In this document: positions 19,991 through 44,718 of the stretch, in pieces
How positions within the stretch are numbered: position 1 is the first letter of the stretch
Layout: each line of letters opens with the position of its first letter
NCBI GenBank assembly: GCA_033762955.1
Contig: JANRLC010000048.1
Span: 1 to 64,000, forward strand
Length of the DNA: 64,000 nt
Reading direction: 5' to 3'
Source of the DNA: Verrucomicrobiota bacterium
GTDB taxonomy: Bacteria > Verrucomicrobiota > Verrucomicrobiia > Opitutales > Oceanipulchritudinaceae
Position numbers and translations under genes: made by a program
Notes under the pieces: model-generated
Database searches by the model: none
Told to the model about the DNA's origin: nothing
What the model saw: only the letters and a program-made list of their open reading frames with translations

Positions 19991-20052
19991 ATGATCTGCC
20001 TGATCCGACTGATCCGACCGATCTGTCGTATCCGACCCATCCGACAGATCAT

Positions 20053-20838
20053 CTAGATCACGTGAGTGCCTTTGCAGTCGGGATATTTGGTGCAGCCCCA
20101 GAACTGCTGACCGGCATTTTTACCGCTCTTCGCTGTGCGGAGAGCCATTTGGGCACCGCATTGGGGGCACTTGGGAATGGAATCGGTCTGGCCTGAAGGC
20201 GCAGGCGCAGCGGGATGGTCTTGTGTTCGCCTGTGGACAAGGCGGGCAGTGGCGAGCTGTTCGCTGTAACCGCCTTCCTCGATGAAGCCTTTCTCCAAGG
20301 CGGTGATTTGGCGGTCGAGGAGGAAGTTCGCCTGGTGGATGAGGCATATTAGCGCGTTCGCGCGAACAGCGGGGTCGGCGTGCTCTAGCCAGCGCGAATA
20401 GAGCGCTGCGCGCTGGTGATCGCACAGATCAGACAGATCGGTCGGATCCGCCTGATCCGCCCGATCCGACCGATCCGCTTGCTTTTTCCGGTACACCAGC
20501 GGCACCCTCCGGACCGCGAGGGATTCCGGGTCATCGGGAGCCCATGCCGGCAATCTGCGGTGGCGGAGGAAGTCCTCGTAGTCGAGTAGCAGCTCTTCGA
20601 GGCTGGCGCGGGCGACATTAACGAGCCGTAGCTCGGTCTGCGATGAGGTAGCAGAGGCGCGGCTACCCTCGGCGATATTCTGGCGACCACTGCGTGCGGC
20701 CTGTACCATCTGGTCCACGGTGCGAGAGCGGGCATCGAGGAACTTCTCGCAGAACCAGACGGTTGCATCGTAGATGAGCGTCGTTGTCTGGAAGCTGCAC
20801 GTATCGCGGTAGCCGCCACTGGGTCGGAGTTTCTTCAT
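20053..20838 (-). CDS. four-helix-bundle protein fused to a topoisomerase-type C4 zinc ribbon, with an internal low-complexity insert
   Basis: N-terminal 4HB signature (IYDATVWFCEKF ... QNIAEGSRASATSSQTELRLVNVARASLEEL). C-terminus CPQCGAQMALRTAKSGKNAGQQFWGCTKYPDCKGT. The DRSDRADQADPTDLSDL stretch is encoded by 9-nt GATCCGNCC tandem repeats. Confidence 0.6.
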   Translation of the reverse strand: MKKLRPSGGYRDTCSFQTTTLIYDATVWFCEKFLDARSRTVDQMVQAARSGRQNIAEGSRASATSSQTELRLVNVARASLEELLLDYEDFLRHRRLPAWAPDDPESLAVRRVPLVYRKKQADRSDRADQADPTDLSDLCDHQRAALYSRWLEHADPAVRANALICLIHQANFLLDRQITALEKGFIEEGGYSEQLATARLVHRRTQDHPAAPAPSGQTDSIPKCPQCGAQMALRTAKSGKNAGQQFWGCTKYPDCKGTHVI

Positions 20839-20872
20839 GTCGCGAGATAGGTCGAGTTTGCAGAGAGTTTGC

Positions 20873-21211
20873 TTAAACTTCAGCCTTCACGTGCTCGTGG
20901 TAAACGCGCAGCAGCTCTGTCACCAATATCCCCTCTATCGTCATCCCCTTGTAGCCCGCATCGGCAATTGAGAGATCGCCCAGGCAGGCGTTGCGGATGC
21001 TGGCCCCGGTCAGTGCGACATTAAAGAACTTAGCCCCACGCAGATTGACATCGTCAAGGCTGGTCGCGCTCAGGTTGACATTATGGAATTTCGATTGGGA
21101 AAGATTCACATTTTCAAACTGCGCCCCGCCCAGATTGACATCTGTAAACTCCGAGCCGCCCAGATCAGCGTGCTCCGCCTTGTACTTTCCACATTTAAGC
21201 TCGGTGCTCAT
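20873..21211 (-). CDS. pentapeptide-repeat protein
   Basis: MSTELKCGKYKAEHADLGGSEFTDVNLGGAQFENVNLSQSKFHNVNLSA... shows A(D/N)LxG repeats. It is a paralog (about 90% aa identity) of 39847-40185. Confidence 0.75.
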   Translation of the reverse strand: MSTELKCGKYKAEHADLGGSEFTDVNLGGAQFENVNLSQSKFHNVNLSATSLDDVNLRGAKFFNVALTGASIRNACLGDLSIADAGYKGMTIEGILVTELLRVYHEHVKAEV

Positions 21212-21256
21212 GGTTCGATGGTGTTGAGGTTGGTGACGAAAGCACAAGTACTGTGT

Positions 21257-21769
21257 TTATTGGGTGATAATCAGCGTCTTAAGGATACTATTATCGCTTT
21301 GTGTACCCATGTACCAGAACATGCTGAATCCCGAAATGAAGAGCAACCAAATGATGCCAAAAACCATGCTCATTTTGGCTGATTGACTAAAACCACACGA
21401 GAGAACGGATCGGGAGGCGTCCGAAGGATCGTATCTAACCCCAACTGATTTTGCCGTTCGAAGGCGTCTGACAATTTCATTTTGGTTCTCTCGATTGCTA
21501 CCGCCAGAGTAGCCATATGCAATACGATTCCCTGTGTAAGTTACACCAGATACGACATAGTCATACTGAACTTCGCACCTAAATGTTCTGCCTTTGCGGT
21601 GGTATACTCTTTTGAGTTCACAAGCGGTTATCCGCCCTTCTGTCGTTGGCCAACCACGGGCAACCGAGGACTTGCGCCATGAGTAGACCCCATAGCCCAG
21701 TATGCCAAAACCAATGAGGAAAAACACGACGATGATGATAAGTACGCCAGATGCAGACATAGCCTTCAT
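21257..21769 (-). CDS. DUF3592-family membrane protein
   Basis: TM-flanked beta-rich domain with TTEGRI ... RVYH ... Y.Y..G..Y.G ... YDP pattern. The start is chosen at MKAMSASGVLIIIVVFF. Confidence 0.55.
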   Translation of the reverse strand: MKAMSASGVLIIIVVFFLIGFGILGYGVYSWRKSSVARGWPTTEGRITACELKRVYHRKGRTFRCEVQYDYVVSGVTYTGNRIAYGYSGGSNRENQNEIVRRLRTAKSVGVRYDPSDASRSVLSCGFSQSAKMSMVFGIIWLLFISGFSMFWYMGTQSDNSILKTLIITQ

Positions 21770-22419
21770 GAGTTGGGATAGCGGTATTTCTGTGGCATAC
21801 CTGCTCCAGAGTTGCAAGCGCATTACGGTTACGTAGTGGTCTGTAGGACGCATCTCACTTTCTGGACATATTAAATAGGAATGGCCGCAAAAAGTCGCAA
21901 AAATAGATACAAAAATGAAAGACACCAGCTCGCATCGTGCGTATGCCTTGAGTGTTCGTTAACCTCTGCATTCCTTTTTTAATTTTTGTGCCTTCTTGCG
22001 GCTAAAAATCCCTCGGCTAAAGCCAGCTATCCAAAAACTGAGATGCGCCCTGGTCTGTAGGGTCATCCAAGTGGCTGCAACTGCAACAATTCCGGGAGCG
22101 GTCGTCCTATAAACGCTGGAAGACACACGGGCAAGATGCCGCCAATATGCCTGGGCCACTTAGTGAAATAATCCAATCACTGCGAGATGCACCACTTCCG
22201 CAGTTCCTACACTGCATGAAAACAACGCGCTCGGAAAAGTACTCTGGGAACCAATCGCTCAAGAAAATGCAGAAGGGTGGGAGAGTGAGGAGAGGCAAAG
22301 TGGTCGGTGTTCGTGTACAAGTTGGAGTTCACGCTTCAGCGTGTCCGGGTATGGGGAGTAGAGAACAAATATCTCACGCCCACTTCGCTCAAGACGCCTA
22401 GACGCAAAGGATACGATGA

Positions 22420-22650
22420 CGCGACTTTTCAAATAAATAAAGGATCGGGAGCGCTGAAGGCGCGACCCAAGGGAGTTGTAGGACCGCTCCTTAGGTCGCG
22501 CCTTCAGCGCTCATGGTGTTTTACTGGTCTAAACCTAGGCCGTCGGCCTAGGCTGGGGCTGGATCGCGCCTTCAGCGCTACCAAGGCAAATTGGGTTCAT
22601 CTCATTTCCCATGACTTCAGGATGTCTGATGTTAGTGTCGAAAAAAAACG
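22420..22650. mobile_element. MITE-like palindromic repeat, copy C
   Basis: GGATCGGGAGCGCTGAAGGCGCG ... GTCGCGCCTTCAGCGCTCATGG ... GTCTAAACCTAGGCCGTCGGCCTAGGCT ... GACTTCAGGATGTCTGA matches copies A and B. Confidence 0.65.
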
Positions 22651-23461
22651 GACAGAACCACATCGTGATCCTGTCCGCTTGATTACTGTCAGTCAGTGTC
22701 ACGGAACACCGAACACGAAGCAAAGCGAAGCGTCTGCTTTAACCGGCTAGGCGGCTTGGCTCATGGGTTCGGCTTCCGTCCGGATTACTTTGAGGTGCTT
22801 TACCTTGTCTTCTTCTGATCTGCTTATCGTCTGAAATCGCCTCTTTCGCTCGACACCTGAGCCTCTCTCATCTTCGGAGAACGTCTGAACTCAGCCGCGC
22901 GGAGGGTGCATCGCAGTTTTTGGACAATAAGCAATAGAAGCGGACTGGCGAAGGCACCAGCGCTTACATTCCCAACCGGTAACCAGCCACAGATGTCACT
23001 GATTCACACGGATAGAAGCAATCGCATCCGTGGCTAATCCATCTAATCTACACCCAATCTGTGGCCAAATGAGCGATCCGCCGCCGCATGGCCGTATCAT
23101 CCGCATTGGCGGCGAATACCGTGACTTGCGCCGTATTGAAGCGCATCCGGCTACGACCGCAAAGCCTCCCCGCTCATAGTGCGCGGTTAGCCCAATTCGG
23201 GTCCGCTGCGCTCAGATGACGCGGGCTGTCAGGCCCTGCTCATAACACAAAACGCAAAGGCGAATCGCCCGCGCCGCTCCGGGCTTGTTCAACCATGGAT
23301 GTAGTCGGAGATTCGTTCCTCATCTCCGCTACATCCTTTCGAAACACGATGCCTATTAAATATGCGCATTTAACCTACCACTTCCCTTTGTTTAAGCCAT
23401 CTCACAAATTGAGCATCGGCATATATATGACGTTGTGTTTAGTTCGGCTCCTTTGGTCTTC

Positions 23462-23800
23462 TCAACATTTAGATAGGGCGTCATTCTTTAATTTCTCCCC
23501 CAGTGATCTCAAGTCATCTATAATCCGATTCAACAATTGGATGTCGGTCGCATAAATCTGTTCATATAATTTGATTAGTTTATCTGAATCTTCCAAGGAA
23601 TCACCGAAGTGGAATGTCGCATTGCGAACTCGAACAAACTTATCGACGCGGGCTATAACCTTTCGGACTCGTTTTTTCTCTGCTCTTGTTTCGTCGGAAA
23701 GTGCGCCTAGCGCATCGAGTTTTCGATGCCACTCATTCAATCCGGCCCTTATTTCATAGAGGGCAGCTAAAACTTGCTTCTTAATGGCAATCTCCGTCAT
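23462..23800 (-). CDS. cassette ORF, HEPN-like (RNxxxH motif) hypothetical protein
   Basis: The 112-aa ORF has KFVRVRNATFHFGD, which fits the HEPN/DUF86 Rx4-6H motif. Its ATG overlaps the stop of an upstream 56-aa ORF (ATGA). Confidence 0.45.
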   Translation of the reverse strand: MTEIAIKKQVLAALYEIRAGLNEWHRKLDALGALSDETRAEKKRVRKVIARVDKFVRVRNATFHFGDSLEDSDKLIKLYEQIYATDIQLLNRIIDDLRSLGEKLKNDALSKC

Positions 23801-23967
23801 GCCGTGATGCTGATTTTTTTCTTTTCTTCTTTCAGGAAGGCGTCGTTGAACGCGCTAAGATAGGCATTCAACGCCGAATTTACATTCTGCCAGCCGACAA
23901 CCATGCGTCGGTATGTGCGCTGGGGTTCTGTTGCGCCGCGAATCCACTCGATTTGGGGATGCTTCAT
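23797..23967 (-). CDS. small cassette ORF (56 aa), possible partner/antitoxin of the HEPN-like gene
   Basis: MKHPQIEWIRGATEPQRTYRRMVVGWQNVNSALNAYLSAFNDAFLKEEKKKISITA. It starts 7 bp downstream of an attC R-prime box. It is absent from the ORF track because it is under 60 aa. Confidence 0.35.
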   Translation of the reverse strand: MKHPQIEWIRGATEPQRTYRRMVVGWQNVNSALNAYLSAFNDAFLKEEKKKISITA

Positions 23968-23973
23968 ATTTTT

Positions 23974-24080
23974 GCCGAACGATAAAGCTCAGACACCCCG
24001 CTGGGGATTTCCGAACTCAATAGTCTTCTCGTAAGCGCTGGGCGTCATCTGGGTTGTCTGTAGCGTCTTTCTTGTTAGTC
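23974..24080 (-). other. integron attC site
   Basis: Top strand GCCGAACGATAAAGCTCAGACACC ... GGTTGTCTGTAGCG ... GTTAGTC. Confidence 0.55.
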
Positions 24081-24325
24081 TGCGTCATTAGTCACCAAAA
24101 AGTTTGTCTCTTATCTCTTGAATCATCGAACGCACGTCATCACCAGTGCAGCTGCTGTTCGCTAACTGGCTCGAAATTCGGTCCAACTTCACAGGTATGC
24201 TGAGAATCGCGCACTCCAGTCGACGTACTCGCTCGGCTTTCTGCTCCACCAACTGACGAGCTCGAACAAGCTCTCGGCGTTTCTCTCGTTCTGCTTTGCT
24301 CGGAATGGTTACTGTGTTTGGTGTG

Positions 24326-24427
24326 GCCTAGCGTCAAAGATGAGCCACGATGCAACTTGGCGCGTTTCCTGACGCTGCAGGAATCGTGACAGGTCGTGTC
24401 GTTGGCTCTGGTGCCTTGTTGTTAGGC
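24326..24427 (-). other. integron attC site (long, lies inside the 3' end of the ORF 24334-24825)
   Basis: Top strand GCCTAGCGTCAAAGATGAGCCACG ... CGTTGGCTCTGGTGCCTTGTTGTTAGGC. Confidence 0.65.
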
Positions 24428-24825
24428 TGGATTTCTTCGAGCCTCTCCCAGCGCATTTCAAATTCGGGAATCATGTAGCTCTTCGGCTGAAGCCAGAATG
24501 AAACCCGCTCTTCCTTCACTCCGCGATGAGCTCTGGCTCTGACCTCCTCTGGCCTCAAAATGAAAATTCCAGGAGTGGCGTCTAAATTATTCACGATGAT
24601 CCAAAAGTCACCCATAACTTTATCGAGAGAATTTCCAAGCGGCACAGGACTCTTCTTGCTCAGTGCTTTCACTTGGATGCCGATGTAACGAGTGGCCGTT
24701 AGATCGTAGGCAATGATATCAATGCCCTTCGCATTTCGCGCGGTCGGCATGACATTCCAACCACGCTTTGACAACTCGTAGCACACGAAGTAAAGGCCTA
24801 CATTTCCTACGATCTGGGCGTTCAT
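24334..24825 (-). CDS. cassette ORF, Hjc/NucS-like PD-(D/E)xK nuclease-fold protein
   Basis: GNVGLYFVCYELSKRGWNVMPTARNAKGIDIIAYD ... IGIQVKAL fits the G..GE..V...L...G..V......DIIA ... QVK nuclease pattern. The C-terminal roughly 30 aa are translated through the attC. Confidence 0.5.
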   Translation of the reverse strand: MNAQIVGNVGLYFVCYELSKRGWNVMPTARNAKGIDIIAYDLTATRYIGIQVKALSKKSPVPLGNSLDKVMGDFWIIVNNLDATPGIFILRPEEVRARAHRGVKEERVSFWLQPKSYMIPEFEMRWERLEEIQPNNKAPEPTTRPVTIPAASGNAPSCIVAHL

Positions 24826-24831
24826 GATCTT

Positions 24832-24900
24832 GCCTAATGTGGAAGCTGAGGTGCGCTGCGAGCGTCAGCGAGTAGCGTCACCTTCAGCAACTTGTTAGCC
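24832..24900 (-). other. integron attC site
   Basis: Top strand GCCTAATGTGGAAGCTGAGGTGCGC ... CTTGTTAGCC. The stop codon TAA of the upstream cassette gene lies inside the R'' box GGCTAAC. Confidence 0.6.
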
Positions 24901-25389
24901 TAAATAATCAATCTTCAATGATCTCCTAAGCTTTTTCGCCGATTCGAGTGCGGTCCTCAAATTATCATCCATTGTATTCCCAACAAACTTTTCAATTAAT
25001 TCCAGTTGCTCATCTTTTGAATCAAGCACCAATCTAACAAGGGGATCCAACTCTCCTGCAACGGTATCAAATATTACTCCTTCCTTCCCCATCATTATTT
25101 TGTAATATAAATCTTCATTCTCTTGAAAGAGATTGATATCAAATCTCCCCTTGGCCCAATCAGAAACATGGCCTAGAAAACTATCTTGCTTAATATGATT
25201 TTCCAACTTCCCGGACAATCGGTTCACCTCTAAGGTATACTTGATGATGGGGTTTTTTATATTTACTATTTTTGACAGGAATAAAATCAATCCTTCCCAG
25301 TACTGATCATCCTCAGTGTTTATATATATGCAGATGTAAGATGGGCCATCCTTTGATATGATATTAGATTTGAGTATAGCTGTTTTCAT
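24895..25389 (-). CDS. cassette ORF, hypothetical protein (about 36% GC)
   Basis: 164-aa ORF bounded by attC sites on both sides. Confidence 0.5.
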   Translation of the reverse strand: MKTAILKSNIISKDGPSYICIYINTEDDQYWEGLILFLSKIVNIKNPIIKYTLEVNRLSGKLENHIKQDSFLGHVSDWAKGRFDINLFQENEDLYYKIMMGKEGVIFDTVAGELDPLVRLVLDSKDEQLELIEKFVGNTMDDNLRTALESAKKLRRSLKIDYLG

Positions 25390-25399
25390 AAATTGTCTG

Positions 25400-25464
25400 G
25401 CTAACGTAGAAGTGAGCGGCCTGCGCTGCTTTTCGCACAGGTCCGCTCTACTGCCGGGTTAGCC
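25400..25464 (-). other. integron attC site
   Basis: Top strand GGCTAACGTAGAAGTGAGCGGCC ... CTACTGCCGGGTTAGCC. The stop TAA is embedded in the R'' box. Confidence 0.6.
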
Positions 25465-26319
25465 ACGTTTTCGCTCAAGTATTTCATGGACGTCTTTGGC
25501 TAGCTGCCTATATGAGAGCGTTGCCATCTTCCTATCGCATAGTGCGACGACATGGCCCAGATCGTGCTCACCTTCAAACGGAAAGGAATCCGTGACGGCC
25601 GGGATATTTAGCGAGCCGATCCATTTACCTAGAATTCCAACGGAAATGACAATGTTAGATGGACCCAACCCCGCGATTACACACGAGCCCTTAATCAACT
25701 GACAAAAATGGCTCAACAATTCGCTCTCCTCTTTATCTGCACTTTCGGCTTGGGAAAATTCGTCATATCCTCGCAAACCGAAGTGTGCAAAGTCCTCGCG
25801 TTTTGATTCTGAGTTGAAGTTCATTAGTGCGCGCAGCTCGTTATGCTTGACATGAGTACGGAATAGATCGCCGTAGATGAAGTAACCAGCAGACAGCGCA
25901 ACCTTAGCAACGAAGCGTTTGCGGCCGTGAGCTTCAATATTAAATTGCGACGAAATCGTGTTTCCGCCGATTTCATGCGGCTCAAGGTGGCGCTTAGTCA
26001 TCGCATCCCAAATGAGCATGCCCTCTTTGCCACGCAAGGTAACTTGAATGGGCCGCTTTTCGTCGCCCAGATGCGACTTTTTCAATAACACCGTCGGCGG
26101 CGTGTTGCTGTGTCCCCTTGCGTCAAACTCACGACGGCGCATCAGCGTAAGAAAGTCGTTTGCCAACACTCCATCGATTCTTGAACCAACCTTCGCATTG
26201 AAGTCCTTCTCTACGGGAATACAGAACTGGTTTGATCCTCCGAGCGAAAGTGGAATGATGTGCTCGGAGTTCATTGCCTCTACAGGCAATTCAAGGTCTG
26301 TGTAAGGACACCACGGCAT
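25459..26319 (-). CDS. cassette ORF, HNH endonuclease-domain protein
   Basis: NSEHIIPLSLGGSN is an HNH motif near the N-terminus. The 286-aa protein has an uncharacterised C-terminal domain. Confidence 0.6.
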   Translation of the reverse strand: MPWCPYTDLELPVEAMNSEHIIPLSLGGSNQFCIPVEKDFNAKVGSRIDGVLANDFLTLMRRREFDARGHSNTPPTVLLKKSHLGDEKRPIQVTLRGKEGMLIWDAMTKRHLEPHEIGGNTISSQFNIEAHGRKRFVAKVALSAGYFIYGDLFRTHVKHNELRALMNFNSESKREDFAHFGLRGYDEFSQAESADKEESELLSHFCQLIKGSCVIAGLGPSNIVISVGILGKWIGSLNIPAVTDSFPFEGEHDLGHVVALCDRKMATLSYRQLAKDVHEILERKRG

Positions 26320-26321
26320 AG

Positions 26322-26395
26322 CGGCTAGCGTATGAGATCAGTCACGGCCCAGCAAGGCCGTTGGCTGTAGCGACTGGTTGGTCGGTTTGGTTTTC
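26322..26395 (-). other. integron attC site (boxes degenerate)
   Basis: Top strand TAGCGTATGAGATCAGTCACGGCCCAGCAAGGCCGTTGGCTGTAGCGACTGGTTGGTC is nearly identical to the attC at 49597-49657. Confidence 0.55.
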
Positions 26396-26406
26396 ATGGG
26401 GGATTC

Positions 26407-27123
26407 CTATGCGATGCGCTTCCACCGCTTGAACGCCGCTACATCATCGGAGGAAAGGTCAAACCACTCACCCTCACCTCGCTTGCTGGCAAAGCGTCTA
26501 TGCCAATAAGCCTCTACTCCTGCTGGATCATCGGTCTCGATGGTGTGAATGGTTGTCGGCGGGACAGGAATCTTTATCGCGAGCTGCCTCTCGCGACTTC
26601 CGACCGACACAGTCCGTCCAATCTTGTGGTGACGCCCGGATCGCATGAGATAAACAAAACCGGTTTCAACAGACCTCTCCTTGTCTGGAGCTGACGCCTC
26701 CTCCTTCAGCTCAGCCCGACATAGAGACAAAACGTCGTCGTACTCTGGATGACTCTCACAATACCGTACCACGCGACCAAGCAACGCGTCCTTCCCATCG
26801 CGGTAGAACACGGTCTGACTTGGAAACGTCTTATCCGTGCGAGACCGCAAAACAAACTCTCCTTTCACAGGAATACGCCCAAGCTCTCTCGCGAACGCGA
26901 TAAACTTCTCGACCAAAAAGTCTGCCGAATACGCGGCTTGCATTTGATTGCAGCTGAAGCCCGCTTCGACCAACGCATCGCCCCATCTAAGCCAATGACT
27001 GGGAAACCAATCATTGTGCCGAATGCCAGTCTTACGCTCGAACAAGAGTGTCCCGGGGGCTTTGCCGCCGTTCTCTTTCGCGATGCGACGGATTTCTTCG
27101 AGAACTCGTGCTTTTTCGATCAT
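26407..27123 (-). CDS. cassette ORF, T5orf172 (GIY-YIG-like) domain protein
   Basis: C-terminal half GFVYLMRSGRHHKIGRTVSVGSRERQL ... PAGVEAYWHRRFASKRGEGEWFDLS is the T5orf172/MUG113 signature. A GGAGG Shine-Dalgarno lies 7 nt upstream; the gene is translationally coupled to the 27142-27846 gene. Confidence 0.6.
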   Translation of the reverse strand: MIEKARVLEEIRRIAKENGGKAPGTLLFERKTGIRHNDWFPSHWLRWGDALVEAGFSCNQMQAAYSADFLVEKFIAFARELGRIPVKGEFVLRSRTDKTFPSQTVFYRDGKDALLGRVVRYCESHPEYDDVLSLCRAELKEEASAPDKERSVETGFVYLMRSGRHHKIGRTVSVGSRERQLAIKIPVPPTTIHTIETDDPAGVEAYWHRRFASKRGEGEWFDLSSDDVAAFKRWKRIA

Positions 27124-27141
27124 TGGTTAGCCTCCGTTTTC

Positions 27142-27846
27142 TTATTTGGGGTCACGCTTACCTGCTAAAATAGCGATTACATTAATGGCCGTAGTGGTGG
27201 CATCAACACATATTGCTGCACTTCTAAAATCCGCAGTTCGAGAGTGAGTAAGGGCATTCGCGATACGCAAGGATGCTTTGGTATAACGCCTGAGCTCCTC
27301 ATTCGCATCGCCCTTCATCTCAACGGCTATATACGATTCCAGCATTCTGTTTGCGTCCGTAGAACTGGGTTCGGTGCCATCAAGTGGAGGATGATTCGCT
27401 CTGATATATACGGCCTGCGCCAATGAAACTAATCCATCACGGCAAAGAAGTCCTACTGCCTGAAACTGCTCTTCATTCTCTGCCGACGCTAGACGATTCC
27501 TCATCTCGCCAACGGTTCTATCAACTCGCTCCCATCCGGTCAGCTGATATTCCTGCTCTTTTCCGGTCTGAATCAAATTTATTAATGGGGTAAATAGATT
27601 TGAGACAAAGCTTCTCCGGGATTGATAGCTTGGTAAATCACCCGAACTCCATCGGCCATACCAATCCCATAGACTGCCGTATGTAATAGGATTCGTGATT
27701 TTCCGAACCGCTAGAGCTGCTGAAATCTTAGCGTAAGTGCGCTGATACTGCTCATCGACTTCTTGGATTCGTGAGCCACCAGTAGAAACAGAGACCATGA
27801 GATCACGCATTTTATTAAGACCTTCAATCAACTCGGGATTATTCAT
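27142..27846 (-). CDS. first cassette ORF next to attI, hypothetical protein
   Basis: The 234-aa ORF starts about 6 bp from the attI junction. It shares a cassette (no attC between) with the T5orf172 gene. Confidence 0.55.
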   Translation of the reverse strand: MNNPELIEGLNKMRDLMVSVSTGGSRIQEVDEQYQRTYAKISAALAVRKITNPITYGSLWDWYGRWSSGDLPSYQSRRSFVSNLFTPLINLIQTGKEQEYQLTGWERVDRTVGEMRNRLASAENEEQFQAVGLLCRDGLVSLAQAVYIRANHPPLDGTEPSSTDANRMLESYIAVEMKGDANEELRRYTKASLRIANALTHSRTADFRSAAICVDATTTAINVIAILAGKRDPK

Positions 27847-27851
27847 ATTTT

Positions 27852-27990
27852 TGGCTATCAGTTTGATATATGGAAAGTTTTCCGTCCTATAGCAAGCCGT
27901 AGACGGAAACTTTATACATGTTATTGACTATAGAAACGGAATTCATGAAAAATGTGAAGCTTGCAGTCTGATTATCCGTCCTATTAGCTA
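27852..27990. promoter_or_regulatory. attI recombination site region, and probable Pc/Pint promoter region
   Basis: The intI 5' flank abuts the first cassette. It is about 85% identical to 50352-50495; similarity to that second copy stops exactly at the first-cassette boundary (27852 / 50352). Confidence 0.6.
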
Positions 27991-27995
27991 ATGAC

Positions 27996-28997
27996 ATGGA
28001 TAAAGTGGAAAAGAAGGCTGGGTTTCATCCTGATCCGGGGTTGCGGTTGATGGAGCAGGTGCGGGAGGGGTTGCGCTACTATCATTATGCTTACCGGACA
28101 GAGCAGATTTATTGCGAGTGGATTGACCGGTTTGTGAAGTTTTATCGGGATGAGCGGCATCCGCGAGAGATGGGGAGCCTGGAGGTGGAGCGGTTTCTCT
28201 CTCATCTGGCTTCGGTGGAGCAGGTTTCGGCTTCGACGCAGCGACAGGCTTTGAATGCCCTGGAGTTTTTGTATGACAGGGTACTTCTCCAGCCACTAGC
28301 CGGGGAAATTGCTCCCATCCGGGCCAGGCCGGGTCAGCGTCCGCCTGCGGTTTTGACCGTGGCGGAAACGGGCGCGTTGCTGGGGGCAATGAAGGGAACA
28401 CATGGGGTGATGGCGCGGTTGCTTTATGGGGCCGGGTTGCGCTTGATGGAGTGTGTCCGGCTGCGGATTAGGGATGTGGATTTTGGGCAGGGGCTGGTGT
28501 ATGTGCGCGATGGCAAGGGGGGAGGGGAGCGTACGGTGCCGCTGCCGAAGCGGTTGAAGCCGGCCTTGCTGGAGCACCTGCGACGGGTGCGGGCTTTGCA
28601 TGAGAGTGATCTGGCGGAGGGTTTCGGTGCGGTGTGGCTGCCGGAGGCTTTGTCGCGTAAATACCCGCAGGCTGAGCGTGAGCCGGGGTGGCAATATGTG
28701 TTCCCGGCCAAAAAGCGTTCCCTCGATCCGCGCAGTGGTCGGGAACAACGGCATCATGTCATGGAATCGGGGGTGCAAAAGGCGGTTAAGGTGGCGGTGG
28801 CCAGGGCGGGGATCACGAAAAAGGTGGGGTGCCACACTTTGCGTCATAGTTTCGCCACCCATCTGCTTGAAAGTGGGGTCAATATTCGTGTATTGCAGGA
28901 GTTGATGGGGCACAGGAATGTGAAAACTACCGAAATGTATACCCGTGTTGTGCTCGGTAATAAGCAGGGTATCACCAGCCCACTGGACAGGCTGTGA
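27996..28997 (+). CDS. intI: integron integrase (tyrosine recombinase IntI)
   Basis: Alignable by eye to IntI1: LRYYHYAYRTEQIYCEWIDRFVKFY; the IntI-specific insertion VWLPEALSRKYPQAEREPGWQYVFPAKKRSLDPRSGREQRHH; and catalytic HTLRHSFATHLL ... GH ... TEMYTRV (R-H-R-Y). Confidence 0.9.
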   Translation: MDKVEKKAGFHPDPGLRLMEQVREGLRYYHYAYRTEQIYCEWIDRFVKFYRDERHPREMGSLEVERFLSHLASVEQVSASTQRQALNALEFLYDRVLLQPLAGEIAPIRARPGQRPPAVLTVAETGALLGAMKGTHGVMARLLYGAGLRLMECVRLRIRDVDFGQGLVYVRDGKGGGERTVPLPKRLKPALLEHLRRVRALHESDLAEGFGAVWLPEALSRKYPQAEREPGWQYVFPAKKRSLDPRSGREQRHHVMESGVQKAVKVAVARAGITKKVGCHTLRHSFATHLLESGVNIRVLQELMGHRNVKTTEMYTRVVLGNKQGITSPLDRL

Positions 28998-28999
28998 GG

Positions 29000-29960
29000 G
29001 TGGGGTTGTGAATGGAGAATGGAAAATGGAGAGTGGAAAATGGGGATGGCGCAAGGCAGGAGGCAGGAGGCAGATTTAAGATTACAGATTTCAGATTTCA
29101 GATTCCAAATGGCGGAAGGGAGAAGGTAGTCGCTTCGCTTCGTGTGAATATCTGTCGCTGCGCTCGGTAACGGTGATAAAGTTGGCAGTTAGCAGTGTGC
29201 AGTTGGTAGTTTGCAGTGGGGAGCCGCTTCGCTCCGTGTTCGGTGGTCCGTGTTCGGTGGGCGACTAATGCAAGCTGCCGCCCGTGGTCGGGAGAGTGGT
29301 TCCGTGGACAACTTCCCGATTGCTGAAGGTGGATAAATGCTGTGTTTCCCGATGACACGGGAGGATGAGACTGCACTCCAGATAGGAAAACCAACCTTGG
29401 CAAGCGGAAATGACGTAGCGTAGGCACAAAGTAACAAAGGCACAGAGTCGGATAGGCAGGAGGCAGAAGGCAGTGGACAGTTTGCAGTTGGCAGTGGGGC
29501 CCCCCATTGCTTCCCCTTCGTCCCCTTCTTCCCATTTCCGCGAGTGGCGGCAGGGTCGCGGCGAGTGGCGGTGGGGTCTCAGGGAGTGGCGGCAACGGTT
29601 CCGCGAGTGGCGGCGGGTGTGCGCGAGTCGCGGCGGGGGCTCGGGAAGTGGCGGCAACGGTGGTACGCGTGACGGCAACGGTGGTGCGAGTGGCGGTAAC
29701 CTTGGTACGAGTGGCGGCAACGGTGGAGCGAGTGGCGGCAACGGTGGTGCGAGTGGCGGCAACCTTGGTACGAGTGACGGCAACGTCGGTACGAGTGGCG
29801 GCAACGGTGGTGCGAGTGGCGGTAACCTTGGTACGCGTGACGGCAACGGTGGTGCGAGTGGCGGCAACGGTTGAGGGAGCGGCGGCGGGGGTGTTGCGGG
29901 AGTCGCGGCGGGGGTTGCAGGGTGGGGCAGGGGTGAAATAGACCCATTTTGTCACAATTG
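29000..29960. repeat. composite repeat module: GGAGAATGG / GGCAGGAGGCAG / AGATTTCAGATT simple repeats, a 210-bp conserved unit (29263-29470), and a 21-nt tandem array (about 29500-29880)
   Basis: The 210-bp unit is about 88% identical to 50790-51000. The tandem unit GGTGGTGCGAGTGGCGGCAAC occurs about 17 times. A paralogous module lies at 50495-51520. Confidence 0.75.
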
Positions 29961-30015
29961 GGTTGCATAGGAGGGCTGGACAGGGGGTGGTTTGGGCTAT
30001 GGAATTGGGGAACTT

Positions 30016-32088
30016 ATGAAACATGATTTTAGTCCGGTAGCTCCGTTGGGTCGCTCAAACATTAGCCATCTGCGGCCTGCGGGTTTTGATACTTTCTGGT
30101 TCGGGGTGTGCTACTACCCGGAGCATTGGGACGCGGAGACGCGGGCTCTCGATGCGGAGCGGATGGCGGCAGCGGGGGTGAATGTAGTGCGGATGGGCGA
30201 GTTTGCGTGGGACTTGATGGAGCGGGTGGAGGGGGTGTATGACTTTAGTTTGTTTGACGAGACGATTGCGCATCTGGCCAGGCATGGGATTAAGACAATC
30301 TTCTGCACGCCGACGGCGGCTCCGCCGCGGTGGTTGACAGTACAGCATCCGGAGATACTGCGCCAGGACAGGCTGAATACGGAGCTTAAACATGGTTCGC
30401 GGCAGCATGCGGACTACAGTCACCCTACGTTCCGGGAGTATTCACGTCGGATCACGGAGGTGCTGGCTGAGCATTACAAGGATAATACAGCGGTGATTGG
30501 GTGGCAGACGGACAATGAGATTTACTGCCATTTCTCAGATGACCACAGCCCGGCGACGCGGGCGGCGTTTATCGCGTTTCTAAAGGAGAAGTATGCGGGC
30601 GACATTGTTGCGCTGAACCGGGCGTGGGGTACGGCTTTCTGGGCGCAGACTTACGGGAGTTTCGAGGAGATTGATACGCCGTATGAGAATCGACCGACGT
30701 ATCCGAACCCTTCGCAGCAACTGGACTATGCGCGGTTCCTGAGCGAGACGGTGGCGCGGTTCCAGCATGAGCAGATTGCGCTCTTGCGGGCGGCGAATGC
30801 GGGGTGGTTCATCACTCATAATGGGGTGATGAGCAAGACGGACTACCGGGGGCTGTTTACGCAGGACCTGGATGTGCTGGGGTATGATGTGTACCCGTTC
30901 TTCGACACGAATCCCACGTCCCGCCCGTGCAGCCACGCATTTGGGCTGGACCGTGTGCGGGCGTTTAGCGGGAACTTTATTGTGCCAGAGCACCAGGCTG
31001 CGGCGGGTGGACAGGCGCCGTACTTTCATAATGCGCCGGAGCCGGGGGAGATGCGCTTGTTTACGTACCGGAGCATCGCGCGCGGGGCGGATAGCGTGCT
31101 GTACTTCCGCTGGCGCACGTGCCGGTTTGGGGCGGAGATTTACTGGTGCGGGATTCTGGACCATGACAATGTGCCGAGGCGGCGCTACGCGGAGCTGAGC
31201 CAGATCGGCGGGGAACTGAAGCGCGTGGGTCCGGCCCTGCTGGGCACTTCTGTGCGCGTGGAGGTGGCGTTTGCGGAGGGGGACTATGCGGCGACAGAGG
31301 CGCACTTAACTTACCCACTCGGTCTACCCTCGGAGGGGACGGCGGCAGTCTGGAGCCATCGGTGGTTCTTCGAGCGGGGGTATGCGGTGGGTTGTGTACA
31401 CCCTGCGGATAACCTGGATGGTGTGAAGCTGTATATTATCCCCCATTGGACTGTGTTTGACCCGGCCTGGGTGCCTGCGCTGGAGCGATTTGTAGAGCGG
31501 GGTGGGGTACTGGTAATCGGTGCGAGGACGGCGTCGCGTACGTTAGATAATCAGGTAACTGCGGAGACGCTGCCGGGGTGCCTGGCGAAGCTGGCCGGAG
31601 TCACGGTGGAAGAGTATGGCCGGCAAAACAAGGGAGACCTGCGCCCACAGAAGCTGCAGCTCGGCGAAACTGAGGTGGAGAGCGCGGATTGGTACGAAGT
31701 GCTGGGCCTGCAAGGGGCGGAGGCGCTCGCAACCTGGACCACACGGCACCTGGTGGGCTTGCCTGCAATCTCGCACCGCAAGGTGGGGCGCGGGCATGTG
31801 CTCTATGTGGGGACGTATTTCTGTAACGGGGCGCTCTTCGATGCGCTCTGGCCCGTGGCTGGTAAACTGGCCGGTGTTTCCCCACAACTGGTGGAGCACC
31901 CGGCGGGGATTGAGGTAGTCGTCCGCGAAAAGGCGGGAGTGGAACTGTGGTTTATGCTGAATCGCAACGAGACGGCAACCCGTGTACCGCACCCACCGCT
32001 CGGACAGGACCTGGTGACGGGAACCACCGTGGATGGCCCCTGCGAGATAGAGGCGAGTGGCGTGCGAGTGGTGGTGCAAAGACGGTAG
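30016..32088 (+). CDS. GH42-family beta-galactosidase
   Basis: FWFGVCYYPEHW ... GEFAW ... WQTDNE matches the GH42 N-terminal TIM-barrel motifs; the protein is about 690 aa. Confidence 0.75.
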   Translation: MKHDFSPVAPLGRSNISHLRPAGFDTFWFGVCYYPEHWDAETRALDAERMAAAGVNVVRMGEFAWDLMERVEGVYDFSLFDETIAHLARHGIKTIFCTPTAAPPRWLTVQHPEILRQDRLNTELKHGSRQHADYSHPTFREYSRRITEVLAEHYKDNTAVIGWQTDNEIYCHFSDDHSPATRAAFIAFLKEKYAGDIVALNRAWGTAFWAQTYGSFEEIDTPYENRPTYPNPSQQLDYARFLSETVARFQHEQIALLRAANAGWFITHNGVMSKTDYRGLFTQDLDVLGYDVYPFFDTNPTSRPCSHAFGLDRVRAFSGNFIVPEHQAAAGGQAPYFHNAPEPGEMRLFTYRSIARGADSVLYFRWRTCRFGAEIYWCGILDHDNVPRRRYAELSQIGGELKRVGPALLGTSVRVEVAFAEGDYAATEAHLTYPLGLPSEGTAAVWSHRWFFERGYAVGCVHPADNLDGVKLYIIPHWTVFDPAWVPALERFVERGGVLVIGARTASRTLDNQVTAETLPGCLAKLAGVTVEEYGRQNKGDLRPQKLQLGETEVESADWYEVLGLQGAEALATWTTRHLVGLPAISHRKVGRGHVLYVGTYFCNGALFDALWPVAGKLAGVSPQLVEHPAGIEVVVREKAGVELWFMLNRNETATRVPHPPLGQDLVTGTTVDGPCEIEASGVRVVVQRR

Positions 32089-32323
32089 GCGCTGAGGTAC
32101 AAAGGTACAAAGGCACAGAGGCACAAAGTTGGCAGAAGGTAACCAGAGTGTCTCGCTCTGGTCTGAATGGCTTTGGCGAGGATGCTCCTTGCGTGTGCGG
32201 ACCGACGGTCCGCATTGTTCAGTGACATCAGGATGACCGAATGAAACGTCGCGCCAACGACGCTGCATACACAAACAGGGTTCGTCTCCTTTCCCGCGAC
32301 TCTTGGAAGTCAGAAGTGGGCAA

Positions 32324-36003: not shown

Positions 36004-36660
36004 ATGGCATTCCCACCCACTTCAGGCGGCAACCGTCCCTATAACCGGTCCTATAACAATAACAGCAATCAGGTGCGTAAGAACGAGCGCATCCGTGCTC
36101 GCGAAGTACGCTTGATAGGCCCGGATGGCAGCCAAATCGGCATCGTAACACGTGAAGAGGCACTGGTACTTGCCAAGCAACACGATCTCGACCTCGTGGA
36201 GATAGCCGCAACGGCGACCCCACCGGTTTGCCGTATCCTCGATTACGGCAAGTACATGTATGAGATTTCGAAGAAGGCCAAGGACAAGACCCATGTCACG
36301 AAGGTCAAGATCATCAAGATGCGCATGCGCATAGAGACCCACGACTACATGGTGAAGATTCGCCACTCGGAGGAATTTCTATTTAAGGGTAACAAGCTCC
36401 GACTCACCCTCCAGTTCCGCGGTCGCGAGATGGAGCATAAGGAGCTGGGCTACGAAGTCGTGCAGCGCGCGGTAAACGACCTCATCCACGTAGGGGCAAT
36501 CGAAGGCGGTGTGAAGCCCCAGGGCCGCAGCATCGTCGCCACGCTCAACCCCCTTCCCGTCGCCAAGCGCAAGCTCAAGTTCAACGAGAAGGTCTCCGAA
36601 CACGATGATCTCGTGGACGATTCGGACGATGCGGATGAGCACGACGAAGACGCGAAGTAG
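36004..36660 (+). CDS. infC: translation initiation factor IF-3
   Basis: INERIRAREVRLIGPDGSQIGIV ... KVKIIKMRMRIETHDY ... ; acidic C-terminal tail. Confidence 0.8.
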   Translation: MAFPPTSGGNRPYNRSYNNNSNQVRKNERIRAREVRLIGPDGSQIGIVTREEALVLAKQHDLDLVEIAATATPPVCRILDYGKYMYEISKKAKDKTHVTKVKIIKMRMRIETHDYMVKIRHSEEFLFKGNKLRLTLQFRGREMEHKELGYEVVQRAVNDLIHVGAIEGGVKPQGRSIVATLNPLPVAKRKLKFNEKVSEHDDLVDDSDDADEHDEDAK

Positions 36661-39619: not shown

Positions 39620-39639
39620 CGATCTGTCGGATCCTCTAG

Positions 39640-39810
39640 ATCACGTGAGTACCCTTGCAGTCGGGGTATTTGGTGCAGCACCATCTGGTCCACGGTACGG
39701 GAGCGGGCATCAAGGAACTTCTCGCAGAACCAGACGGTTGCATCGTAGATAAGCGTCGATGTCTGAAAGCTGCACGTATCGCGGTAGCCACCGCTGGGTC
39801 GGAGTTACTT
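39640..39810 (-). pseudogene. remnant of the four-helix-bundle/zinc-ribbon gene (internal deletion of about 600 bp)
   Basis: The 5' and 3' ends match 20690-20838 and 20053-20100, but the middle is missing. Confidence 0.6.
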
Positions 39811-39846
39811 CATGGAACGAACTGGGTATGTTAGCAGAGCGCTCCC

Positions 39847-40185
39847 TTAAACTTCAGCCTTCACGTGCTCTCGGTAAACGCGCAGCAGCTCAGTCACCAA
39901 AATCCCCTCTATCTTCATCCCTGCGTAGCCTGCATCGGCAATGGTAAGGTCGCCCAGGCAGGCGTTGCGGATGCTGGCTCCGGTCAATGCGACATTGAAG
40001 AACGTAACGCCGCGCAGATTGACATCATCAAAGCGGGTCGCGCTCAGGTTGACGTTATGGAACTTCGACTGGGACAGATTCACATTCTCAAACTCTGCGG
40101 CACCCAGGTTGACATCCGTAAACGCCGAGCCGCCCAGATCAGCGTGCTCCGCCTTGTACTTTCCACATTTAAGTTCCGTGCTCAT
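39847..40185 (-). CDS. pentapeptide-repeat protein (paralog of 20873-21211)
   Basis: About 90% aa identity to the copy-1 gene. Confidence 0.75.
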   Translation of the reverse strand: MSTELKCGKYKAEHADLGGSAFTDVNLGAAEFENVNLSQSKFHNVNLSATRFDDVNLRGVTFFNVALTGASIRNACLGDLTIADAGYAGMKIEGILVTELLRVYREHVKAEV

Positions 40186-40344
40186 GGTTTGATGGGAATG
40201 AGGTTGGTGACGATTGCACATCACTGTGTTTATCCGGAAATAATAATGTGTGTTAAGTCGCTTGCCGTAAACGCAAAAGCGGGCGGGACTTTGTGGGTCC
40301 CGCCCGCGAAGGCTTGTTACTGCGTTGGTTGCCGGGTTGTAGGA

Positions 40345-41334
40345 CTAGGCAGCCTGGGTTAACGGAGCGGCTGCGGTGCGCACTACTGTCACGGCATTGC
40401 TGCCGCGCTCGCGACGGGTGTTGGTGACAACATACACCTTGTAGAGCATTGTGCTACCGGTGGATGCGAGCCCTTCGCTGGTCTCGTAGGACTGTACGTC
40501 CTTAGCCACTGTGGCGATGGCAGACGCCTCGTTCGTGCTGTAGGGAGCGGCGTTGCAGGCGCGGATCTCGTAGTGGAGCAGGTCCGTGCGAGCGCTCGGA
40601 GTCCAGGTTAGTGTAGCCTTCTGCGCGACAGCGTCCCAGCTAGCGAGCAGTTCCACTTTGTCGGCAGCACCGCCCTTGGGCTGAGTGATTGTCGGCACAT
40701 TAACACGAATCAGGTGGTCCTTCGGGAAAACTGCCTTCACCTTGTCGAGGTACTGGATGAGGCGGGGCTTGATCTCCTTCTTCACCATTTCATCACGCGT
40801 CTGAATGAGCATGGAGTGGTCCTTCTTCTTAATGATGATGTTCTTATAGGCCGTACTCAGTGCTGCGCTGTCCGTCGTGAACTGTTCGATGGTGATTCCA
40901 CCTTCGAGAACCAGGGGCGAGGGAAGCCCAGCCACCGGATTATCCAGCAGGTACTGCCAGAGATCGCGTACCGCTTCGCACGTACGCAGGAACTCCAGTT
41001 GCTTGCAGCGACCACGCGGCAGCTTGGGCAGGCGCTGCGCCACCTCCGCCGGGAGTTCGCCACGCACCAGATAGATGAACTTGGCGATGCTTTCATAAAG
41101 CGATGCTTTTAAGGCATCGCGATTGGCGTACTCCTGACGGAGACTCTTTAGACTCAGGTCTTGCTGGTATAACAGCGCTTCAATGGCCGCAATGAGGTCC
41201 GAGAAGCGGTTTATAGTGAACAATCCCTTGAGGACGATGGCACCAGAGGCGCCACGAGAATCATTCGCCTTCATCCAGCTATTGAGAAAGCTGACGAGGC
41301 AGGCGATGATGGTTGATACTGTATTGAGTGACAT
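40345..41334 (-). CDS. hypothetical protein with C-terminal fibronectin-III-like domain
   Basis: WTPSARTDLLHYEIRA ... YKVYVVTNTRRERGSNAVTV is FN3-like. Confidence 0.45.
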   Translation of the reverse strand: MSLNTVSTIIACLVSFLNSWMKANDSRGASGAIVLKGLFTINRFSDLIAAIEALLYQQDLSLKSLRQEYANRDALKASLYESIAKFIYLVRGELPAEVAQRLPKLPRGRCKQLEFLRTCEAVRDLWQYLLDNPVAGLPSPLVLEGGITIEQFTTDSAALSTAYKNIIIKKKDHSMLIQTRDEMVKKEIKPRLIQYLDKVKAVFPKDHLIRVNVPTITQPKGGAADKVELLASWDAVAQKATLTWTPSARTDLLHYEIRACNAAPYSTNEASAIATVAKDVQSYETSEGLASTGSTMLYKVYVVTNTRRERGSNAVTVVRTAAAPLTQAA

Positions 41335-42169
41335 GACTATTCCTTTCGTTTGTTTTGTTATTTTGGTTGGTATTCCCAGTCTGCACACAGCCGCCGGCCT
41401 TCAGCTCTCAACGTTCGGCGTCGTGCCGACAGTTGGCTGTTGGTTTGTGCTCTGCACAGCCCGCGGGAATAGCGGGGTTCTTGGTTGCCGTTCTGCTTCT
41501 GACATTGCACCGTTGGTCAGATCATCGGGGCCGGTTCTTGAATCGGGCTTTTACCCCCTCTTCTCAATCCCTTCCTTTCCTTGCGGTCCGGAGCACTGGG
41601 CGTCGCCTATCTTTTTAAAGATACACATCCAAAAGAGGATGTACTCCCTGTGAGCGGCTTCAGGTTCCAGCTATCATGGACGGCAAATCCAACCAGAACT
41701 TTAAAGCATGGATGTACAGTGACAGACCGACGGGGGTAGATCAAGCACATATCTTAAAATAATCGATTTTTCGTGATCGAAGGATGATCATGGACGCGGA
41801 ACCCGCATGAATAGCCAGTTTGTCGAAGGAGAACGCCACCGGAAGCTGATGTATGGCCGATTCATGGTAGTGCAAAGTGCTGGGAATGACTATTATGGCT
41901 GATTGCAAGGCGGTGTAGATAGCAGCGAATCAGAGAATAGGATGGAGACAATCTCAAGAAAATGCGTAGAATCGGGGCAAAATGAGTGGGAATAGATGAA
42001 GAAAGTGAAGCCGTAGGTGAGGGGAGCTGTGGATTATGTTATAGTGGACTATCGTCTAAAAATGCATATTAAGTTAGGCAGTGTTCACTAGAATAAGTGG
42101 CTGTCCATCGAGGTTCTGCTGGAAATGTAAAGTGGCGGAAGGGAAACTATTCACTGCGATTGTTATGAC

Positions 42170-42665
42170 TACCAAAGGAGCACGGCCAGCTTGGTCGCTT
42201 GTGTGATAGAAGCGGGCGAGCCGCCCGTGCTTCTGTAAAGAAGCTTGGCCGTATAAAGGAGCGCGGCCAGCTTGGTCGCTTGTGTGATGGAAGCGGGCGA
42301 TCCGCCCGCGCTCCTGTAAAGAAGCTTGGCCGTATAAAGGAGCTTGGCCGTATAAAGGAGCGCGGCCAGCTTGGCCGCCTTGTGTGACAGAAGCGGGCGA
42401 GCCGCCCACGCTCCTGTAAAGATGCCAGCTTGGCCGTATAAAGGAGCGCGGCCAGCTTGGCCGCTTTGTGTGATATAAGCGGGGGAGCCGCCCGCGCTCC
42501 TATAAAGATGCCAGCTTGGCCGTATAAAGGAGCGCGACCGGCTTGGCCGCTTTGTGTGATAGAAGCGGGCGAGCCGCCCGCGCTCCTGTAAAGATGCCAG
42601 CTTGGCCGTATAAAGGAGCGCGACCAGCTTGGTTGCTTGTGTGATAGAAGCGGGCGAGCCGCCCA
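42170..42665. repeat. tandem array of about 5.5 copies of an 87-bp palindrome-rich unit
   Basis: Unit GGAGCGCGGCCAGCTTGGCCGCTTTGTGTGATAGAAGCGGGCGAGCCGCCCGCGCTCCTGTAAAGATGCCAGCTTGGCCGTATAAA at about 90% inter-copy identity. There are no unique spacers, so it is not a CRISPR array. Confidence 0.75.
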
Positions 42666-44684: not shown

Positions 44685-44718
44685 GACGGCTAGATGTTGG
44701 GGAAGGTGATTATGCGCG

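Follow-up and report, generated by a model that had tools for sequence, protein, structure and literature searches.

An integron and an integrase-less sister array

The stretch of DNA analysed here (the window) comprises positions 1 to 64,000 of contig JANRLC010000048.1 in GenBank assembly GCA_033762955.1, from a Verrucomicrobiota bacterium; the genomic survey is these ~64 kb of one metagenome-assembled genome (MAG). Its subject is a composite repeat module at 29000-29960 that occurs twice in the window, and that consists of a conserved unit and a tandem array of 21-nt units set among other short repeats. An earlier note, made from the letters of the sequence, had recognised this module upstream of a GH42 beta-galactosidase gene and upstream of dnaE, and had proposed that it could be a cis-regulatory RNA or a recombinogenic element. 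The two copies stand at two loci, here called A and B, each of which carries an array of integron cassettes, and the homology between these loci reaches far beyond 29000-29960.

At locus A, the open reading frame (ORF) 27996-28997 on the plus strand, intI, encodes an integron integrase of 333 amino acids. The product scored 416 bits against TIGR02249 (integrase_gron; cut-off 265) over residues 19-333, and carries a SAM-like domain and a catalytic domain (Pfam Phage_int_SAM_4 and Phage_integrase). Its sequence is that of MDX2110119.1 (100% identity), a protein of a Verrucomicrobiota bacterium MAG, and the closest database proteins are named integron integrase. The cassette array (20039-27846, minus strand) is made up of small ORFs, mostly without a Pfam match, at a G+C content of 47-54%, which is below that of the flanks. 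Between the ORFs lie attC sites, at 25399-25464, 26321-26384, 24832-24900 and 23974-24081 (minus strand); the first of these reads GGCTAAC...GTTAGCC on the cassette strand, and its predicted fold is a bulged hairpin (-39.3 kcal/mol). Sites of both kinds, attC and attI, were called by motif (for attC, RYYYAAC/GTTRRRY cores) together with the predicted fold. The attI site and the intI promoter share the 149 nt between the array and the integrase gene (27847-27995), which hold the direct repeat ATAGGACGGAWAA twice and also a sigma-70-like site, TTGACT-18-AAAAAT (27924-27953, plus strand). The cassettes are transcribed away from the 5' end of intI, that is, on the minus strand below 27846, with intI on the plus strand from 27996. 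Having an IntI domain, at least one attC site near intI and an adjacent attI site, locus A is a complete integron.

Locus B has a cassette array without intI (39622-50351, minus strand), with attC sites called in the same way at 49597-49657 (GGCTAAC...GTTTGCC), 46673-46771, 45860-45958 and 45421-45488 (minus strand). The attI-like region that follows (50352-50492) keeps both ATAGGACGGAWAA repeats and has a degraded –10 element of the intI promoter. In the place of intI there is a filler of 86 nt, mostly heptamer satellite (50493-50578, plus strand): the A/B homology ends within 6 nt of the intI ATG and restarts ~8 nt past its stop codon, and a tblastn search with IntI (E<=10) found no intI remnant in locus B. 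With four attC sites in 45421-49657, and with intI missing for 10 kb on the side expected to carry it, locus B is a cluster of attC sites lacking an integron-integrase (CALIN).

Aligned by blastn, the two loci prove to be collinear paralogues along their full extent. The left edge of the homology is at 20039, where 20039-20100 pairs with 39622-39683 (87% identity); it is followed by 20705-21283 versus 39680-40257 (86.6%), which covers the distal pentapeptide-repeat cassette and its surroundings, by 22643-22796 versus 42872-42987 (84-91%), 24002-24065 versus 43014-43077 (87.5%) and 26335-26379 versus 49609-49653 (91%), and by the attI and intI-promoter region, 27851-28001 versus 50352-50496 (81%). 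Several attC-bearing intercassette stretches are thereby matched between A and B, at 84-91%. On the far side of the integrase position, the heptamer blocks at 29002-29129 match several blocks within 50494-51492 at 74-91%, and the order after attI is the same at both loci: heptamer blocks, the conserved unit, and 21-nt arrays. Both of the units in the 64-kb window lie inside this collinear duplication, in the same order and orientation. The module is the non-coding outer flank on the intI side, with which the duplicated integron platform of ~10 kb ends on the right. An assembly chimera is an unlikely source of the pair, given the divergence of 6-20% between the copies and the flanks, on both sides, that are unique to each.

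The arrays share their distal cassettes, namely the pentapeptide-repeat cassette (39847-40224 in B, matching 20873-21247 in A) and a zinc-ribbon/four-helix cassette, of which B holds a remnant, and their middle cassettes differ. In integrons, new cassettes enter at attI and the oldest lie distally. From this we infer that the differing middle cassettes and the shared distal ones are the result of cassette capture at attI after the duplication.

The most distal cassette of array A (20053-20838) encodes a four-helix-bundle suffix domain and a topoisomerase-type zinc ribbon, and because of a 604-nt internal deletion array B retains only the last ~20 codons of it (39622-39683); 9-nt repeats GATCCGNCN occur at 19993-20050 and 20427-20478. 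At the other end of array A, the attI-proximal cassettes (25459-27123, minus strand) encode one product of the MUG113/T5orf172 (GIY-YIG-like) kind that has an HNH-associated repeat, and a second with a weak HNH_5 match; both could be of nuclease or defence type. Array B contains, at 42174-42692, a unit of 81-86 nt repeated six times in tandem; each repeat is an imperfect palindrome (GGAGCGCGG...CCGCCCGCGCTCC) whose size is attC-like but which lacks the RYYYAAC/GTTRRRY cores. A dispersed repeat family at 7491-7670, 10993-11286 and 22433-22628 has related pieces inside cassette array A, and inverted arms of 102 nt (86% complementary) bracket a 3.6-kb segment with tRNA-His and a melibiase-like gene; the family with these arms may be an element resembling a miniature inverted-repeat transposable element (MITE), or an invertible or mobile segment.

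The first gene beyond the duplicated block is the GH42 beta-galactosidase gene on the A side (30017-32088, plus strand) and dnaE on the B side (51619-55275, plus strand), which encodes the DNA polymerase III alpha subunit, 1218 amino acids from its ATG. The 9.6 kb between the copies is occupied by housekeeping genes: GH42, a GNAT gene, an lpxA-like gene, pdxA, a gene for an Fe-S assembly protein, infC and an amidase gene. Of these, infC (initiation factor IF-3) lies at 36004-36660; the Vibrio cholerae superintegron also adjoins infC-rpmI-rplT, a likeness that we take to be probably coincidence.

Anatomy of the repeat module

The conserved unit is found at 29263-29473 in locus A and, by alignment with that copy, at 50793-51004 in locus B, on the plus strand in both cases. 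In the locus-versus-locus blastn alignment the copies are 93.9% identical over 212 columns, which is higher than the figure of about 88% given before, and they differ by 12 substitutions and one indel, the latter at 29406. The unit has a core (~29263-29418), with two hairpins and four TCCCGA/TCGGGA motifs, and a heptamer-like tail (29419-29473). One hairpin, TCCCGATGACACGGGA at 29347-29362 in copy A, reads TCCCGAAGACACGGGA in copy B, with the sole change in the loop, and at the 3' end both copies of the unit read GGCAGGAGG(C/A)AGAAGGCAG. From ~29418 onwards, the final third belongs to a family of repeats with a 7-nt period, other members of which lie in further parts of the window; this leaves a truly unique core of only ~155 nt. 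Compared with the rest of the window for antisense or attC similarity, the core gave a 12-nt match only, which is at chance level. The borders of the unit are sharp, in that the sequence on either side cannot be aligned between loci A and B.

The tandem arrays of 21-nt units are equally real. Tandem Repeats Finder (TRF) reported array A at 29540-29915 (plus strand), with scores of 308 and 373, a consensus GGTGGTRCGAGTGGCGGCAAC and a higher-order period of 63 nt (89% match), its 5' and 3' units being degenerate; array B was reported at 51155-51388, with a score of 244 and 11.1 copies, and extends over 51141-51393 (plus strand) with three consecutive identical units GGTGGTACGGGTGACGGCAAC. Where 0.71 occurrences of the array core GAGTGGCGG would be expected in the window there are 18, which puts the arrays far outside chance, and with the blastn alignment of the unit this bears out the earlier observation that a unit and an array have been duplicated together. 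The 15-17 copies then claimed for both arrays hold for A (~17, counting degenerate units), and B has ~11. Nor does the array follow directly on the unit, as had been stated: other repeats, ~66 nt in A and ~140-150 nt in B, stand between them. The genes were likewise said to lie immediately downstream; they are indeed the first plus-strand genes, but ~100 nt separate the end of array A from the GH42 ATG (30017) and ~230 nt the end of array B from the dnaE ATG (51619), and the unit is ~540 nt (GH42) and 615 nt (dnaE) from the start codon, with hypervariable repeats between.

The best alignment between the arrays covers 248 nt (29626-29873 versus 51143-51390) at 80%, and the variants of the 21-mer are locus-specific. 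Across 22 units, positions 9-13, 15-17 and 19-21 (GAGTG.CGG.AAC) are 91-100% conserved, apart from position 10 at 73%, and positions 1-8 and 14 are variable. This uneven conservation might be read as a sign that the array is a row of iteron-like or centromere-like binding sites, spaced two helical turns apart and organising or insulating the boundary between integron and housekeeping genes: a 21-nt period would put all sites on one face of the helix, and the same submotif can still be recognised in the degenerate 5' units of array A and, as single copies, at 261-269 and 51532-51541. Common descent and slippage would also produce uneven conservation, however, and the copies outside the arrays are within chance (~0.7 expected); moreover, no candidate binding protein is encoded beside either array, and no such arrays were found in relatives. 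We therefore regard a binding array as improbable. The arrays behave like minisatellites, given their identical runs and the 63-nt super-repeat. Like bacterial minisatellites or variable-number tandem repeats (units of 10-100 nt), they consist of head-to-tail 21-nt units with a 77-82% match, identical runs and a higher-order period; unlike them, two paralogous arrays keep their consensus and their position beside a conserved core at an integron boundary. A G-quadruplex reading of the 21-mer is weakened because its GG tracts are variable: the consensus has four, position 14 is A in 7/22 units and positions 1-2 vary, which leaves two-tetrad structures at most. As for the single copies of the 21-mer core outside the arrays (GAGTGGCGG and GAGTCGCGGC, both on the sense strand and in a number within chance), the one at 261-269 is just upstream of a ribH-like ORF and adjoins the heptamer block 158-231, and the one at 51532-51541 is upstream of dnaE.

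Outside the core, all repeats of the module have a period of 7 nt or of 3 x 7 = 21 nt. Heptamer blocks, in the recurring order [GAATGGA]n-[GGCAGRA]n-[CAGATTY]n, are found at 29007-29130, 50494-50540, 50597-50700, 50985-51140 and 51396-51500. In locus A, the composite block 29007-29130 (plus strand; [GAATGGA]n-[GGCAGGA]n-[CAGATTY]n), which matches blocks of locus B at 74-83% identity, is followed by a spacer (29131-29262, plus strand) of GTTGGCA-type heptamers that includes a 14-nt tandem duplication (29233-29260) and has no counterpart in B. In locus B, heptamer satellite precedes the unit at 50579-50792 (plus strand), together with a recurring element, CTCC(C)TGTTACTCCC...GGGGCGT, and of this element one copy scored as terminator-like; a block of GGCAGRA and CAGATTY units lies between the unit and array B (51005-51140, plus strand), and one of GAATGGA and then CAGATTY units between array B and dnaE (51396-51500, plus strand). 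Beyond the two loci, a heptamer block at 158-231 occupies an unrelated intergenic region in inverted orientation, and degenerate heptamers of the AGGCACA and GTTGGCA types, which form the last third of the unit, recur at 3798-3837 and 32092-32140. A 7-nt periodicity scan of the window found six regions totalling 344 nt, all of them intergenic; lags 5, 6, 10, 11 and 12 gave none, lag 8 gave one region and lag 9 gave two. The purine-rich strand of the heptamer satellites is usually the sense strand of a neighbouring gene. Within locus B, the 46-nt heptamer block 50494-50539 is 100% identical to 51018-51063, so recent exchange does occur in these repeats, and we take the satellites to expand, contract and exchange through slippage and unequal recombination. 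The module is thus largely satellite DNA around a unique core of ~155 nt.

Cyanobacterial STRR repeats are heptameric intergenic repeats. Others have been described as GGGNATC repeats in Xanthomonas and Nostoc (PMC4692102) and as TAACTGA repeats in Beggiatoaceae, Cyanobacteria and Bacteroidetes (PMC4679880). The heptamer blocks, in distinction from the core, are tandem 7-nt units at several intergenic loci with none in coding DNA, and so belong with STRR-like repeats; they share with all of these systems the short tandem blocks, the strand asymmetry, one strand being rich in purines or in G, and the lineage-specific occurrence. They differ from them in their units (GAATGGA, GGCAGRA, CAGATTY and GTTGGCA) and in their ordered composite blocks, as surveyed over ~64 kb, and the G-quadruplex rationale of PMC4692102 fits poorly, the units here having GG tracts at best. 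In Haemophilus influenzae, 7-nt repeats between promoter and gene control expression (PMC12721329). Tandem 7-nt repeats likewise stand upstream of plus-strand genes, in sense orientation, in this window, where a different copy number would alter spacing or the length of the 5' UTR, but this would be a functional analogy only: dnaE is essential and unlikely to be phase-variable.

The long minus-strand ORFs predicted over the repeats had been judged not to be genes, and this judgement holds. The ORF of copy A (29098-30024, 308 amino acids) had no homologue in 5.8 billion proteins, the other open minus-strand frame (ORF 50677-51039) had none in an exhaustive scan of 1.84 billion representatives, and neither Pfam nor NCBIfam matched any of the repeat ORFs. 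Were the first a real gene for TVAATRT heptad repeats with a conserved C-terminal domain, pseudogenised in B, one could point to its span over both array and unit, and to positions 7 and 10 of the 21-mer, the most variable pair, which fall on third codon positions in that frame. Against this, the indel at 29406 causes the unit to be read in different frames in A and B, copy B carries a stop, and the ORF of copy A would start inside the GH42 gene; in addition, array A is open in all three minus and in two plus frames because the plus strand is purine-rich, so that ORF length is uninformative here. A repeat gene is thus extremely unlikely, and the long repeat ORFs should not be annotated as genes. 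Small plus-strand ORFs in the core (ATG 29269, 22 amino acids; ATG 29338, 28 or 25 amino acids) were also considered; with 3 synonymous and 2 non-synonymous changes and a frameshifting indel there are too few differences to judge, and they were not adopted.

Conservation of the core

The copies differ at 3 positions in the first 121 nt of the core and at 13 of the 212 columns of the whole unit, and the divergence of the core is 2.5-6%. Relative to this, the attI-like region has diverged by 19% (Fisher p = 3e-4), and the co-duplicated pentapeptide cassette has a proportion of synonymous differences (pS) of 0.30 (synonymous rate, dS, 0.38) and a non-synonymous rate (dN) of 0.07. The core has thus changed at about the slow pace of the non-synonymous sites of a gene under selection. 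Such conservation implies either constraint or gene conversion between the copies, and it is most simply accounted for by gene conversion or by a modest cis-acting role; the identical 46-mers within B are evidence that exchange of this kind takes place in these repeats.

Several analyses bear on a structured RNA. No known family in Rfam explains the unit, a check that the earlier note had called for: at the gathering score the whole window gave three tRNAs only, and in a permissive search nothing at either locus approached a gathering score, the best match in the unit being JUMPstart, on the minus strand, with 15.5 bits versus a gathering score of 35. Neither strand had a folding energy better than that of shuffled sequence (z = +0.26 and +0.54). 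The 10 core differences are all unpaired or pair-preserving in the RNAalifold consensus (GC becomes GU, for example, and GA is swapped to AG opposite UU), with a consensus fitted to the same two copies, and there were no compensatory double changes, for which two near-identical copies give little power. Scored against the minimum-energy structure of copy A, copy B fell at a fraction of 0.08-0.13 of random mutants, on the plus strand only, which is not significant. No promoter-like or terminator-like sites were predicted within the core, and inspection by eye for LexA-box, sigma-54 and dif-like motifs gave none that was convincing.

These results can be set against the possibility that the ~155-nt core is a functional cis-acting element under purifying selection in both copies. 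It might be a structured RNA of the plus strand, whether a small RNA, a long leader or a 3' element of the intI transcript, or else a DNA site bound by protein through the four TCCCGA/TCGGGA motifs, with the array as a helically phased spacer. In its favour, no other segment of the duplicated structure is as well conserved as the core, which has been kept in copy B despite the loss of intI; the pair-preserving differences and the somewhat better than random fit of copy B to the fold of copy A, on one strand only, point the same way. The folding energies, the want of an Rfam match, of compensatory double changes and of a promoter-like or terminator-like site, the non-significant mutant test and a consensus structure fitted to the very sequences it describes all speak against it, as does its absence from the relatives and collections searched (see below). 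We consider such an element possible but unlikely. More doubtful still is a fuller proposal, in which the core would be an undescribed plus-strand RNA or protein-bound DNA that marks the intI-distal boundary of integron platforms in this Verrucomicrobiota lineage and is constrained beyond attI, with the phased array as its partner, for example an insulator or a binding platform, between the recombination-prone cassettes and essential genes such as dnaE.

A replication origin was also considered and rejected, because the DnaA-box sequence TTATCCACC is not clustered and the GC skew makes no origin-type switch: each unit contains one TTATCCACC, the window contains 15 versus 10.3 +/- 3.1 expected, and the GC skew is strongly positive (0.32 and 0.20) in the 2-kb bins that bear the modules, is local to the modules and the adjoining genes, and does not change sign.

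The three nearest dnaE relatives found (DnaE 67-69% identical) have neither the unit, by nhmmer, nor tandem repeats before the gene, a test that their distance makes weak; the genes upstream of dnaE there are dnaB or an HD-domain gene. Similarly, four loci from three homologues of intI (64-66% identity) have ordinary short intergenic DNA downstream of intI, with no unit or array, in the same layout of intI and cassettes; the nearest IntI proteins are <=67% identical. No DNA with a 7- or 21-nt period was found in the 122 kb of loci from relatives. In the relatives examined, neither dnaE leaders nor integron flanks carry the module as a conserved feature, and as far as can be seen, among the loci examined, it is lineage-specific. 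The proposal of a cis-regulatory RNA or leader for GH42 and dnaE is not borne out, the module being collinear with a larger duplication, the unit distant from both genes, and the dnaE genes of relatives without it.

Searches of wider collections gave nothing beyond chance. An exact-word scan of a genome contig collection with a 20-mer met only a ~20-nt match inside a coding gene of Acidobacteria, one of a metagenome contig collection with a 24-mer met only a 25-nt match in an unrelated coding gene, and neither was accepted, these two collections evidently being without the source MAG; the unit had no match in viral contigs (exact-word scan) or in plasmids and phages (blastn). These searches bear on the idea that the unit, alone or together with the array, is a repeat of the ERIC or MITE kind dispersed among the intergenic regions of the genome, which landed independently at the two loci or offered a preferred site beside which the platform inserted. 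Such an idea could draw on the sharp borders of the unit and its non-aligning flanks, on the surrounding heptamers, which are clearly dispersed (158-231, 3798-3837, 32092-32140), and on the size and internal hairpins, which resemble those of small intergenic repeat elements. But there are only two copies in 64 kb, both inside a larger collinear duplication; no terminal inverted repeats or target-site duplication were seen by eye, GCAAGC recurring as a direct repeat; and the genome, metagenome and viral collections held no true match. A dispersed element is therefore a poor candidate. Integrons, CALINs and satellite repeats are all known kinds of sequence, and the core matches no known family.

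Origin of the duplicated platform

We hold it moderately probable that the module is a passenger of the platform duplication, with gene conversion or mild constraint acting on its core. The platform, whose ~10 kb begin with the two distal cassettes and finish with the 21-nt array, would have been copied once, and the module copied with it. Later, the attI-proximal cassettes may have been turned over by integrase-mediated capture, so that only the distal cassettes are common to A and B; intI would have been lost from copy B and heptamer satellite would have taken its place; and the repeats around the core would have been reshuffled, the core itself changing by point mutation only. The repeats may have supplied the homology both for the duplication and for the loss of intI. 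In this respect the earlier idea of a recombinogenic element that mediated the duplication is plausible as a conjecture, since the module edges the duplicated block and a 46-nt exchange has taken place in B; its scale was misjudged, the duplication being of ~10 kb and not of 1 kb. The position before GH42 and dnaE would be incidental: both modules stand upstream of these genes because the integron copies end there, and their position is therefore no evidence of shared regulation.

Four points weigh against a passenger origin. The core seems too well conserved for a neutral passenger of equal age. There is no visible mechanism for a dispersed 10-kb copy, with no transposase in the window and housekeeping genes between the copies; consistent with this, no transposase or Tni/Tns-like domain was found in the scanned ORFs of the window, and a transposon end of the Tn7 or Tn402 type (carriers of class 2 and class 1 integrons, respectively) was rejected for want of transposition genes in those ORFs. 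The attC and attI calls rest on motif and fold rather than on IntegronFinder models. Lastly, the survey is of ~64 kb, and the genome may hold the module at further places.

Integrons occur in Verrucomicrobia, genomes often hold several integron elements, and CALINs may arise through loss of the integrase, although most are without a recognisable trace of their origin (PMC4889954). Within that scheme, locus A is like a complete integron and locus B, with at least four attC sites, is like a CALIN. Unlike a typical CALIN, locus B keeps an attI-like region and the flank beyond it, with intI exchanged nearly from start to stop for satellite and no pseudogene left behind. Unlike described integrons, the platform has a conserved repeat module downstream of intI, for which there is no counterpart there or in the four loci of intI homologues.

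The window thus documents lineage-specific 7-nt and 21-nt satellites in a Verrucomicrobiota genome, of which we found no earlier description in the literature searched. The core, if functional, would be a new accessory element of integron platforms, which the present evidence does not require. The contig holds a complete integron together with a sister cassette array that lost its integrase, and is one of the rare examples where the descent of a CALIN from a complete integron can be seen directly.

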